A stretch of 64,000 nt of DNA. It comes from Candidatus Latescibacterota bacterium. Its GTDB lineage: Bacteria; Latescibacterota; UBA2968; UBA8231. The translations under genes were made by a program, and so were the position numbers. The stretch covers positions 3,936,001 to 4,000,000 of the forward strand of contig CBDETY010000003.1 in assembly GCA_965243025.1 (NCBI GenBank). Direction: 5' to 3'. The notes under the pieces are model-generated. The model was not told the DNA's origin and ran no database searches. It saw nothing but the letters and a program-made list of their open reading frames with translations. Shown here piece after piece: positions 23,858 through 26,003 of this stretch (the first letter of the stretch is position 1; each line of letters starts with the position of its first letter).

Positions 23858-25618
23858 TTACTCCCGGATCCCTATGTGGAGTTCCCGCAACTGCTCAGGC
23901 GAGACCTCGCCCGGTGCGCCCATGAGCGGATCCTGCGCATTCTGGTTCATCGGGAAGGCGATGACCTCCCGGATGTTCGGTTCGTCCGCCAGCAGCATGA
24001 CGATGCGGTCGATGCCGGGGGCGATGCCGCCGTGGGGCGGAGCGCCGTAACGAAAGGCGCGGATCATTCCCCCGAACCTGCGATCCACTTCCCGCCGCGC
24101 ATGTCCGGCAATCTCGAACGCCTTGTACATGATGTCCGGCCTGTGGTTGCGGATGGCACCGCTCGACAGTTCGAGGCCGTTGCAGACGATGTCGTACTGA
24201 TACGCCTTGACCTCCAGCGGCGGTTGCGTCTCCAGCGCAGCCATGCCGCCCTGCGGCATGGAGAACGGGTTGTGCGAAAAGGCCACGCAAGCGCGTTCCT
24301 CGTCCCATTCGTACATGGGAAAATCGACGACCCAGCAGAATTCATAACAACCCTCCCGCCGCAGGTCGAGCCGGTCTGCCAGATGCAGGCGCAACCGTCC
24401 CGCCAGGGCCGCTGCCTCGGATGGCGCGCCGGCGATGAAGAAAACGGCTGACCCCGGAGCGGCTGCGCAGTGCTCGAAAATGCGGCTGCGCACGCTCTGT
24501 TCCAGGGCGGCGGCAAATGATCCTGTGGCCTGCGCTCCGTTGATTAGGTAGGCCAGCCCCTTGCCGCCCGCCTCTTTGACGAATGCTTCGAGGCCGTCGA
24601 AAAACGAGCGCGGCTGCCCTTCCATCTCAGGAACGCACAGGGCGCGGACGACCCCGCCTGCTGCGACGATGTCCCCGAACAGCCTGAACGAGGAGTCCGC
24701 GAAGATCCCGGTGAGGTCCTGGATTTCGAGACCGAAGCGCAGGTCTGGTTTGTCCGTGCCGAACCGCAGCATGGCGTCGGCATGGGAAAGACGCGGGAAC
24801 GGCGGCGCGGTCACTGCCCAATCGGTGAACTCGCGGAAGAGACCGGAAAAGAGTTCCTCGACCACGGCGAAGACGTCCTCCTGTTCGACGAAGGCCATCT
24901 CGAGATCGAGCTGGTAGAATTCGCCGGGGGAGCGGTCGGCGCGGGCGTCTTCGTCGCGGAAGCAGGGCGCGATCTGGAAGTAGCGGTCGAAGCCGGACAC
25001 CATCAGCAACTGCTTGAACTGCTGCGGCGCCTGCGGCAGCGCGTAGAAGCGGCCGGGATACAGCCGGCTCGGCACGAGGTAATCGCGCGCGCCCTCGGGC
25101 GAACTGCTGGTGAGAATGGGCGTCTGGAACTCGGCAAAGCCCATCTCCGTCATGCGCCGCCTGATGCTGGCGATCACTTCCGAGCGGAGCTGAATGCGGC
25201 GGTGCAGCCCTGCCCGGCGCAGGTCCAGGAAGCGATAGGACAAGCGGGTGCTCTCCCCCACTTCGGGATCTTCGGCCACGGAAAAGGGGAGCGGCTCCGC
25301 CGGCGAGAGCACTTCCAGCTCGCGAACGGCGATTTCCACTTCTCCCGTCTCCATCGCGCTGTTGACGGTCTCAAACGACCGTTCGCGCACGTCGCCTGCG
25401 ACGCTGATTACGGATTCGCGGGGGACCTTTGACGCGATTGCCGCAGCGTCATTGTCCGGCAAGATCACGAGCTGGGTGATACCGTAGTGGTCGCGCAGAT
25501 CCAGGAACAGTATGCCTCCGTGGTCCCTTTTGCGATGCAGCCAACCGCTCAGGCGAACGGTCTGGCCGGCGTGGCGCTTGCGAAGTTCGCCGCAGGTGTG
25601 GGTGCGATAGCGGTGCAT
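23858..25618 (-). CDS. aspS: Aspartate--tRNA(Asp/Asn) ligase
   Basis: [53 protein letters not shown] before ATG 25618. Confidence 0.97.
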
Positions 25619-25646
25619 GGCCACCTCCAGTTTTTGGATGTACATG

Positions 25647-25680
25647 AAAAACCGCCGTCGGCGCGAGGCTCAACGGCGGG
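25647..25680 (-). terminator. Attenuator terminator 2 directly upstream of aspS
   Basis: Minus strand CCGCCGTTG-loop-CGACGGCGG followed by TTTTT. Confidence 0.8.
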
Positions 25681-25702
25681 TTGGGGTGAGAGTGTAATCC
25701 GA

Positions 25703-25795
25703 TCACGGCCAACGCCATCGAGCCCGAATGGCGGGATTATTGTCGTCGTTGTCATGCGAAATAGCGCGTGCCGTGTGCTTGTAGCGAAATGTCAT
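25703..25795 (-). CDS. aspS leader peptide 2 (MTFRYKHTARAISHDNDDNNPAIRARWRWP*)
   Basis: SD TAAGGAG 8 nt upstream; six consecutive Asp/Asn codons; followed by a terminator. Confidence 0.8.
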   Translation of the reverse strand: MTFRYKHTARAISHDNDDNNPAIRARWRWP

Positions 25796-25809
25796 CTCGT
25801 AAACTCCTT

Positions 25810-25850
25810 AAAACAGAAAACCCGCCGCGATGCGTGTTCGCGACGGGTTT
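25810..25850 (-). terminator. Attenuator terminator 1 in the aspS leader
   Basis: Minus strand AAACCCGTCGCGA-loop-TCGCGGCGGGTTT followed by TCTGTTTT. Confidence 0.8.
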
Positions 25851-25879
25851 GGGATTCTCGGATTCGGTTGGAGCAGTCG

Positions 25880-25966
25880 TCAGAACACGCGTAATGGGGC
25901 GATCGGATTATTGACGCCGGCGTTGGCTGGATAATTCTGCCTGCGGTCTTTCTGACGGGCCATCAT
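25880..25966 (-). CDS. aspS leader peptide 1 (MMARQKDRRQNYPANAGVNNPIAPLRVF*)
   Basis: Starts 8 nt after a -10 box; 4 Asn + 1 Asp; NNP at residues 19-21 exactly as in leader 2; followed by a terminator. Confidence 0.65.
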   Translation of the reverse strand: MMARQKDRRQNYPANAGVNNPIAPLRVF

Positions 25967-25974
25967 GCTCTTGC

Positions 25975-26003
25975 AACGTATGAGGAGGGCCGCACTCCGT
26001 CAA
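25975..26003 (-). promoter_or_regulatory. Sigma70-type promoter of the aspS leader
   Basis: TTGACG-17 nt-TACGTT on the minus strand. Confidence 0.7.

Follow-up and report, generated by a model that had tools for sequence, protein, structure and literature searches.

Putative tandem leader-peptide attenuators with asparagine and aspartate codons upstream of an accessory aspS gene in a Candidatus Latescibacterota bacterium

A second aspartate--tRNA ligase gene, here called aspS2, and the leader in front of it are located on contig CBDETY010000003.1 of a Candidatus Latescibacterota bacterium (assembly GCA_965243025.1), and both are read on the minus strand of the window, which is the whole stretch of 64,000 nucleotides analysed (positions 3,936,001 to 4,000,000 of the contig). 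As judged from the sequence and its relatives, the leader most likely constitutes two ribosome-mediated (leader-peptide) transcription attenuators in tandem, the first with an asparagine leader and the second with an asparagine/aspartate leader. This arrangement was proposed in an original prediction made from the letters of the window, and it is supported by conserved upstream open reading frames (uORFs), terminators and antiterminator pairings, all of which are kept wherever aspS2 occurs in the relatives. The proposal that the attenuators control aspS stands in so far as an aspS gene follows the leader, but this gene is an accessory second copy and not the housekeeping one.

Between 26003 and 25616 the order is a promoter, uORF1, terminator 1, a Shine-Dalgarno (SD) sequence with uORF2, terminator 2 and aspS2 (Table 1), with 386 bases from the promoter to aspS2, and all of these elements were found on the minus strand at exactly the bases where they had been predicted. 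Each module can be divided into four regions with three competing helices, 1:2, 2:3 and 3:4. Region 2 of module 1 reads GCGTGTTC-TGA-CG and contains the TGA stop codon of uORF1, and in both modules region 4 is the 3' arm of the terminator. uORF1 has Asn codons at positions 11, 15, 19 and 20 and an Asp codon at position 7. Terminator 1 was listed by the terminator scan, which accepts loops of 3-8 nt, and terminator 2 was not, probably because its 10-nt loop is over this limit. When both strands of the whole 6.8-Mb genome were scanned for short ORFs with at least four consecutive Asn/Asp codons, at least three of them Asn, followed by a hairpin and a T-run, uORF2 was the only one found, indicating that the pattern is beyond chance.

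Table 1. Elements of the aspS2 leader, with positions in the window. SD, Shine-Dalgarno sequence.
Element	Position	Strand	Basis
Promoter: -35 TTGACG, 17-nt spacer, -10 TACGTT	26003-25998, 25980-25975	-	sequence and conservation
uORF1, leader peptide 1, 28 aa, MMARQKDRRQNYPANAGVNNPIAPLRVF	25966-25880	-	open reading frame and conservation
Module 1 region 1, CGTCAGAA, uORF1 codons 4-6, pairs with region 2	25950-25957	-	helix conservation
Module 1 region 2, GCGTGTTCTGACG, 5' strand of antiterminator	25878-25890	-	helix conservation and masked folds
Module 1 region 3, CGTC..GAACACGC, 5' arm and loop of terminator 1, pairs with region 2	25832-25845	-	helix conservation
Terminator 1: 13-bp GC-rich stem 25850-25818, then TTTTCTGTTTT	25810-25850	-	terminator scan, fold and conservation
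SD of uORF2, AAGGAG, 8 nt before uORF2 ATG	25804-25809	-	sequence and conservation
uORF2, leader peptide 2, 30 aa, MTFRYKHTARAISHDNDDNNPAIRARWRWP	25703-25795	-	open reading frame and conservation
Asp/Asn tract DNDDNN, uORF2 codons 15-20	25753-25736	-	sequence
Module 2 region 1, CGCCAT, pairs with ATGGCG of region 2; just after the NN-P codons	25728-25733	-	helix conservation
Module 2 region 2, GGGCTCGATGGCGTTGG, 5' strand of antiterminator, ends 3 nt before uORF2 stop	25709-25725	-	conservation and folds
Module 2 region 3, CCAACCCGCCGTTGAGCCT, overlaps 5' arm of terminator 2	25666-25684	-	conservation and folds
Terminator 2: CCGCCGTTG, 10-nt loop, CGACGGCGG, then TTTTT	25647-25679	-	fold and conservation
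aspS2: SD GGAGG 25628-25624; coding sequence 25618-23858, 586 aa	23858-25628	-	translation and protein profiles

The ATG of uORF1 is located 8 nt downstream of the end of the -10 box, and of the 28 orthologous loci shown, most have a sequence TTGAC(G/A)-N17-TAnnnT 8-11 nt upstream of this ATG, those without it being L130, L115 and L008. There is no SD between the promoter and this ATG and the spacing is constant in most of the 28 loci, which points to a leaderless reading frame, and uORF1 is probably leaderless or nearly so. A scan with the consensus promoter gave no promoter-like site in the region 25300-26600, the TTGACG/TACGTT promoter being below its scoring limit. uORF2 is preceded by an SD that is kept as (T/A)AGGAG in most of the 16 loci with module 2, with deviations in L116, L006 and L009.

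The leader was surveyed in 30 distinct loci of the GTDB family with at least 300 nt upstream of aspS2. Both modules are present in 15 of them and module 1 alone in 12, one locus (L131) has module 2 together with a decayed module 1, and two (L138 and L139) have a module-2-like element only. Locus L124 is interrupted by a contig end, and according to the covariance models its two modules are located at the end of a different contig of the same genome. The covariance model of module 1, R1, has matches in 32 of the 76 family genomes, 30 of them with E<=1e-15, and by their coordinates 28 of the 30 strong matches are located just upstream of aspS2; the strong match in G019 lies upstream of fragments of an aspS2 gene, and that in G056 at a contig end, with the aspS2 of G056 beginning another contig. 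The model of module 2, R2, has matches in 18 of the 76 genomes, at aspS2 wherever the contigs permit a check, one of the 18 being a faint match to module 1 of G010 (E=1.3e-4). The genes upstream of the leader vary between the loci, indicating that the leader moves with aspS2, and no other copy of either module was detected in this genome with nhmmer profiles. Beyond the family, 79 loci with the closest aspartyl-tRNA synthetases (AspRS) were taken from genome_contigs, excluding L113 which has almost no upstream DNA, and the leader is present only in L034, which is the same DNA as family genome G091; it is found in none of the 78 non-family genome loci and in none of the 80 metagenome loci with the nearest outside AspRS. 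Four far-upstream ORFs flagged in the genome_contigs scan (L041, L079, L087 and L091) were judged to be due to chance, and those flagged in the metagenome loci L175 and L202 have no Asn run and no linked terminator.

In L138 and L139 (genomes G080 and G082) an Asn-rich tract, VDNNRDNNNQGNNNH, shares the reading frame of the C-terminal end of a lysS-like gene that lies upstream. The element is found at about 190-85 nt before aspS2, and after the tract come a stop codon, a region 2 like that of module 2, and a terminator. Here the tail of a full-length gene may take the place of the leader peptide, or there may be an internal GTG start.

The loci with module 1 alone are of two kinds. In five of them the SD of uORF2 is fused to the SD region of aspS2, so that exactly uORF2 and terminator 2 are gone, and in the other seven terminator 1 is followed by the sequence that is found after terminator 2 elsewhere. 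Both kinds are scattered among two-module loci on the AspRS2 tree and the most distant member, L009, has two modules, which makes repeated loss of module 2 the simplest history suggested by these sequences. A contig in one public run lacks 183 bases (25621-25803) and has three other letters instead, corresponding to the one-module variant of the first kind. The two modules were originally thought to be a possible duplication, an idea that is not supported: the nhmmer profile of either module has no match to the other, and thus no homology between them is detectable, with one faint cross-match of a covariance model. The codons AAT-AAT-CCN (Asn-Asn-Pro) noted at positions 19-21 of both uORFs are indeed there in this genome, but in most relatives the NNP of uORF1 is located at about codons 13-15; to judge from the sequences the identical position is a coincidence of this genome, and the NNP motif itself recurs.

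The reading frames of the leader bear the marks of translated sequence. uORF1 is open in 28 loci with lengths of 20, 21, 22, 26, 27 and 28 codons, and uORF2 in 16 loci with lengths of 28, 29 and 30 codons; all length differences are multiples of three and the frame is always kept. A typical module 1 peptide in the relatives is MMTRQNDRxQNNNNPLxPLRVF, and a typical module 2 peptide is MTFRHKHTARAFSHNNDDNNPAIRARWRWP, which carries NNDDNN. Asn makes up 134 of 619 codons (21.6%) in the 27 distinct uORF1s and 68 of 471 (14.4%) in the 16 uORF2s, where Asp accounts for 5.7% of the codons, these being counts from related and hence not independent sequences. The Asn background in long ORFs of the genome is about 1.7%, a crude figure with long antisense frames of this 65% G+C genome mixed in. 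AAT constitutes 80 of the 134 Asn codons in the uORF1s (60%) vs 21% genome-wide, and there is a single tRNA-Asn(GUU) for both Asn codons. Changes inside the Asn/Asp tracts are mostly between AAT and AAC, between GAT and GAC, or swaps of Asn and Asp. The description of uORF1 as Asn-rich is thus true of the orthologues with their NNNN runs, but the enrichment is modest in this genome, with 4 Asn and 1 Asp in 28 codons.

The three helices of both modules are kept in the relatives. For module 1, 90.3% of 216 cells are paired in the 1:2 helix vs 26-50% in slid controls, with no compensatory change; the 2:3 helix has 95.7% of 323 cells paired and two compensatory pairs, and the 3:4 helix has 94.3% paired with 9 of its 13 pairs invariant. 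For module 2 the corresponding figures are 96.9% of 96 cells with no covariation for the 1:2 helix, 97.7% with one compensatory pair for the 11-bp core of the 2:3 helix, and 100% of 144 cells for the 3:4 helix. The slid controls overall gave 10-59% for module 1 and 12-74% for module 2. The compensatory pairs of the 2:3 helices are reached by 6 of 500 shuffles in module 1 and by 64 of 500 in module 2, and kinship alone may outdo shuffles, as related sequences can beat them without any structure. The loop of terminator 1, usually a variable part of a terminator, is conserved where it is paired with region 2.

In isolated folds the antiterminator and terminator have -16.2 and -21.4 kcal/mol in module 1, and -29.5 and -18.3 kcal/mol in module 2, respectively, and the 1:2 fold of module 2 has -10.2 kcal/mol. 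Folds with a masked ribosome were made on transcripts cut before region 4. With no ribosome, 2:3 is the best fold of these cut transcripts and outcompetes 1:2. With a ribosome masked on the Asn/Asp codons 2:3 is the minimum-energy fold at five of six positions in module 1 and at all three in module 2, and it disappears with the ribosome on the stop codon. The fold of the whole leader is not unusual (z = -1.3).

From these parts, their conservation and their competing pairings, all of them computed, we infer a stalling of the ribosome and a read-through by the polymerase that would proceed as follows. Transcription should start approximately at the AUG of uORF1, and a ribosome would translate the leader while the RNA polymerase proceeds. 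If Asn-tRNA(Asn) is ample, and for module 2 also Asp-tRNA(Asp), the ribosome would reach the UGA stop codon, which in module 1 is part of region 2 and in module 2 follows 3 nt after it, and would thereby cover region 2, so that the 3:4 terminator hairpin can form and transcription stops at the T-run. A ribosome stalled on the Asn/Asp codons would instead cover region 1 and leave region 2 free to pair with region 3, the 5' arm of the terminator, and the polymerase would read through. aspS2 would thus be transcribed only after both checkpoints have been passed. Such gating in series is plausible; module 1 is found alone in 12 of the 30 loci, indicating that the second gate is dispensable.

Public runs that hold the stretch do so as contigs only, and parts that they leave uncovered carry no meaning. 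One metatranscriptome contig of 172 nt, 92% alike, spans 25602-25773, from terminator 2 into the start of aspS2, and is a weak hint of read-through at terminator 2 in a relative. Where runs holding parts of 25300-26100 have a readable organism label, it is that of a sponge or marine metagenome.

The product of aspS2, AspRS2, matches the profiles NF001750 (797 bits) and TIGR00459 (603 bits) and has the domains tRNA-synt_2, OB fold and GAD. The genome has two bacterial-type aspS genes, as had been considered possible, both with a GAD domain; aspS2 is 44% identical to the other copy, which is common to all 40 relatives first sampled, and aspS2 is an accessory second aspartate--tRNA ligase gene. 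It is found in 33 of the 76 genomes of the GTDB family, spread over 8 of its 18 genera, and in none of 56 genomes from the three other families of the class. The closest relatives of AspRS2 outside the family are about 56-62% identical and are mostly from Alphaproteobacteria, some from other phyla. In a maximum-likelihood tree the AspRS2 proteins of the family form one clade (support 100/99), and the copy of this genome is nested inside the clade formed by another genus (support 96/92). The gene is absent from the two other species in the genus of this bacterium, and together with the nesting this suggests that aspS2 and its leader were transferred within the family. aspS2 is convergent with genes on the opposite strand and looks monocistronic. 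Remnants of aspS2 with fragments, frameshifts or a stop codon are present in G019, G016, G006 and G014; in G019 the fragments are located at C1:3148769-3149815, and a module-1 leader just upstream is still recognisable. The accessory aspS2 is being lost in some lineages.

The genome encodes AsnRS (472 bits, cut-off 343), and the absence of asnS that the original prediction had envisaged is thereby contradicted; gatCAB, the other part of the same expectation, is represented by GatB (526-527 bits), and GlnRS is present as well (660 bits). There is no match to AsnA in this genome, which is 96% complete, and no AsnB above the family cut-off, the best AsnB-family protein reaching 102-108 bits vs 267; it is a divergent Asn_synthase-domain protein matched only from profile position 114 on. 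The tRNA-Asn(GUU) has U1-A72 and the tRNA-Asp G1-C72, a weak test since U1-A72 is common in bacteria. Asn can be made on the tRNA in bacteria with AsnRS, GlnRS and GatCAB and no Asn synthetase, and a second AspRS is uncommon, according to PMC4206432; the U1-A72 pair given there as a criterion for tRNA-Asn is found here together with GatB. In a hand tally of the 76 genomes, AsnB-family matches with E<=1e-40 occur in 8 of the 33 genomes with aspS2 vs 30 of the 43 without it (25 have aspS2 and no AsnB match, and 13 have neither), a trend that is suggestive only, being confounded by relatedness and by clusters of AsnB copies that possibly are not housekeeping.

It would be sensible for an aspS gene to be preceded by a leader in which Asn codons dominate if AspRS2 also charges tRNA(Asn). 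Its induction would then feed GatCAB and raise Asn-tRNA(Asn) from aspartate when asparagine is short, and the attenuator would be a control of biosynthetic type in a genome without AsnA and without an AsnB above the cut-off. This purpose and the AND logic of the two checkpoints are reasonable inferences, with a chance of a little under one half. As a further step, with a somewhat less than even chance, aspS2 and its leader could be a self-contained, horizontally mobile cassette for asparagine starvation, with a non-discriminating AspRS2 as the regulated committed step of tRNA-based Asn synthesis under dual leader gating. Leader 1 would then read Asn-tRNA alone and leader 2 both Asn- and Asp-tRNA, and aspartate would be committed to the indirect route only when Asn-tRNA is short.

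Several observations weigh against the attenuators or against this use of them. The covariation is thin, with three compensatory pairs in total and most of the sequences being close relatives, and the helices were defined on the sequence of this genome, which favours them over the slid controls. For one masked position, in L116 where the last Asn of the run occupies the A site, 2:3 is not the best fold. In folds of the full-length leader the terminators persist whichever mask is applied, that of a stalled ribosome included, and antitermination would therefore have to be kinetic, as is usual for attenuators. uORF1 of this genome has just 4 Asn codons, and its first checkpoint may thus be a weak sensor. 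The metatranscriptome contig is the sole RNA contig, comes from a relative, and is possibly DNA carry-over. As to the enzyme, 73 of the 76 family genomes have GatB irrespective of aspS2, and non-discrimination may thus already be a property of the housekeeping AspRS. The His of RDHGG, taken in the original prediction as a sign of a non-discriminating enzyme, is present in both AspRS copies and is thus no mark of AspRS2. Set beside enzymes of solved structure, neither copy falls clearly with the discriminating or with the non-discriminating ones; among the best PDB relatives of each copy there are Asp-only as well as Asp/Asn ligases, and this sequence comparison was dropped as a classifier as it gave no separation. 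Finally, aspS2 co-occurs with AsnB-family matches in 8 genomes.

The alternative that fares best accepts the attenuators as real and takes aspS2 as a back-up or inhibitor-resistant AspRS instead of a dedicated feeder of asparagine. It would be induced when the housekeeping AspRS fails, e.g. by a natural mimic of aspartyl-adenylate, and such failure would deplete Asp-tRNA(Asp) and, by the indirect route, Asn-tRNA(Asn). Additional synthetase copies with a regulation of their own are known to act as back-ups, and the patchy distribution of the accessory aspS2 (33 of 76 genomes, 8 of 18 genera), its position in the clade of another genus like a transferred cassette, and the turnover seen as remnants in other genomes are all in line with such a role, as is the nearly universal GatB in genomes without aspS2, where the core AspRS may already serve the indirect route. 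Leader 1 is however dominated by Asn and not by Asp, with NNNN and a single Asp in most relatives, which fits sensing of Asn-tRNA better, no biosynthetic or immunity genes are located beside aspS2 in the window, and the neighbourhood of aspS2 is not conserved between loci. We consider a back-up role unlikely.

It is far less probable that the hairpins are ordinary terminators or insulators, with terminator 1 belonging to the upstream MerR-type gene, and that the short ORFs are chance frames. This MerR/SoxR-like gene ends at 26015 on the same strand and has no terminator of its own before the leader, and it would agree with such a view that the full-length minimum-energy folds keep both terminators and that the fold of the whole region is unremarkable. 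Against this, promoter, uORFs and hairpins are found with aspS2 also where the genes further upstream are unrelated, the frames remain open in at least six different lengths, Asn/Asp codons are enriched about 8- to 12-fold over a rough background, the complementarity of regions 2 and 3 is conserved with the terminator loop included, and the pattern is unique in the genome.

Only a very slight chance is left for the idea that the uORF products are arrest peptides sensing a small molecule or release-factor activity, or small functional peptides, that do not report on tRNA charging. The peptides do have conserved ends, ...RVF-UGA in uORF1 and ...R-x-R-[WF]-R-[WV]-P-UGA in uORF2, all uORFs end in UGA and uORF2 in Pro-UGA (...RWRWP-UGA), and the most distant module 2 (L009) keeps R.R.R.P via two synonymous changes, RTRFRVP vs RARWRWP. 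These conserved 3' ends coincide base for base with region 2 of the antiterminator, however, and RNA pairing alone accounts for most of the conservation; a ribosome held at the stop codon would cover region 2 and favour termination, not induction, and the Asn/Asp tracts would be left unexplained. One may speculate that slow termination at Pro-UGA might keep the ribosome on region 2 (25703-25711 and 25880-25888).

Equally improbable is a switch of RNA only or one that binds protein, either T-box-like or by autoregulation of AspRS2 on its own leader, with translation of the uORFs being irrelevant: synthetase autoregulation by leader mimicry is known for other synthetases and the genes of tRNA-dependent amidation are reportedly under T-box control in Clostridium acetobutylicum, but no Rfam family including the T-box has a match in 25550-26050 at E=0.1 and none is found over the leader at gathering score, and translation is indicated by indels that keep the frame, by the SD before uORF2 and by the codon bias. 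At gathering score the only Rfam 15 match in the window is a tRNA gene (44198-44270, minus strand), with no T-box, and with E<=10 the region 25550-26050 gives no T-box and only chance-level matches to the hairpin of terminator 1.

Tandem leader-peptide attenuation thus remains the most probable explanation of the leader, and it is of the type described by Yanofsky. The classic attenuators trpL, hisL, leuL, thrL, pheL and pheM (pheST) have a leader rich in the sensed codons, mutually exclusive 1:2, 2:3 and 3:4 helices, a terminator just before the gene, and a stop codon at which a ribosome that has not stalled blocks the antiterminator. Most of these parts are seen at the aspS2 locus: uORF1 and uORF2, the latter with an SD, both start between the promoter and aspS2 and are enriched in Asn/Asp codons, an intrinsic terminator is located between leader ORF and gene in both modules, the antiterminator that excludes the terminator has its 5' strand at the end of the leader ORF in both, and the stop codons are placed correspondingly. 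It departs from them in its sensed codons, which would be Asn and Asp, in having an accessory second aspS as its target, in the serial arrangement of two modules without detectable homology, and in a first leader that is apparently leaderless. To our knowledge the leader-peptide attenuators known so far cover Trp, His, Leu, Thr, Ile/Val and Phe. Tandem riboswitches and tandem T-boxes also have serial terminator checkpoints, from which a lower leakage and a steeper response are expected. Like them aspS2 has two terminator-based checkpoints before one gene, but here these are of the leader-peptide type and differ in sequence and in codons (Asn vs Asn plus Asp), and the second is dispensable in 12 of 30 related loci.

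A T-box of Clostridium acetobutylicum, the 'NT-box', reportedly has dual specificity. It resembles the aspS2 leader in that attenuation reportedly ties the indirect pathway to Asn-tRNA(Asn) to the charging of tRNA, in an organism that also has redundant AspRS copies (Saad et al. 2012, 2013). The NT-box is an RNA that binds uncharged tRNA, whereas the aspS2 leader has no T-box and the translating ribosome would be the sensor, and the lineage is another and the regulated gene a single one here. Deinococcus radiodurans and Thermus thermophilus have, like this genome, AsnRS, GlnRS, GatCAB, two AspRS and U1-A72 in tRNA-Asn, and they have no AsnA or AsnB, just as this genome has no AsnA and no AsnB above the cut-off; their extra AspRS is however archaeal-type, whereas both copies are bacterial-type with a GAD domain here, and in its available parts the source does not mention leader-peptide control for this route (PMC4206432). 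Non-discrimination by AspRS2 is here a candidate property.

A search of the full-text literature, with most subscription journals outside its scope, gave no Asn/Asp leader peptide and no attenuator described for aspS, and Rfam gave none either, in agreement with the presumed novelty of such a leader. The nearest item is a 'tRNA synthetase leader' motif, which is predicted upstream of aspS and glnS in Shewanella and carries no reference in the accessible text of PMC2659441. What appears to be new is the amino-acid specificity, the target and the two unlike modules in series, the mechanism itself being known.

Other short ORFs of a similar kind were seen in the family. Candidate leaders of glnS in G053 and G015 surfaced as weak matches to the module-1 model (E about 1e-5). 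In these two family members glnS (569-571 aa) is preceded by a terminator hairpin and, before the hairpin, by a Gln-rich short ORF (loci L235 512-660 in G053 and L236 546-680 in G015). The peptides, MNALYQQQRQQQRIYDNARRRFLHW in G053 and MNALYQQQRQRSYDNARRRFLHW in G015, differ by an in-frame 6-nt indel, and the ORF looks like a leader-peptide attenuator for a second amide-amino-acid synthetase, which hints that leader-peptide control of such synthetases is a wider habit of the lineage. The glnS of the genome studied here has no Gln-rich leader. A rough scan of the whole genome for further attenuators of the leader-peptide type turned up no convincing classical leaders, and being crude it does not prove their absence. 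Outside the window, at about 6218535 on the plus strand of G000:C3, there is a possible further leader, a 42-aa ORF with many Thr, Met and Ile codons (MTSTTTISSFSLTFTVPPMMMMTTIPG...) and a strong terminator after its end.

Upstream of the aspS2 leader, at 26015-26485 on the minus strand, a regulator of the MerR family with a C-terminal CIGCGCLSLRSC motif is encoded, a motif which we take to be SoxR-like. It adjoins a divergent gene at 26567-28369 on the plus strand for a 600-aa protein with a Rieske [2Fe-2S] domain, and neither of these two genes is linked to aspS2 in the relatives.

If confirmed, the attenuators would add asparagine and aspartate to the list of amino acids sensed in this way and tie the mechanism to the tRNA-dependent route to Asn-tRNA, and the regulatory logic would predict the specificity of an enzyme, as an aspS behind Asn codons should charge tRNA-Asn. 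Should aspS2 with its leader be the mobile starvation cassette outlined above, it would represent a leader-peptide attenuator for asparagine in which the attenuated 'biosynthetic enzyme' is itself a tRNA synthetase. The family also provides a natural experiment, with close relatives that have either one checkpoint or two as a result of clean deletions of at least two kinds, and a comparison of such genomes would show what is gained from a second attenuator in series. Coming from an uncultured lineage with relatives in sponge and marine metagenomes, the aspS2 leader would be a worked example of ribosome-dependent regulators outside the model phyla.

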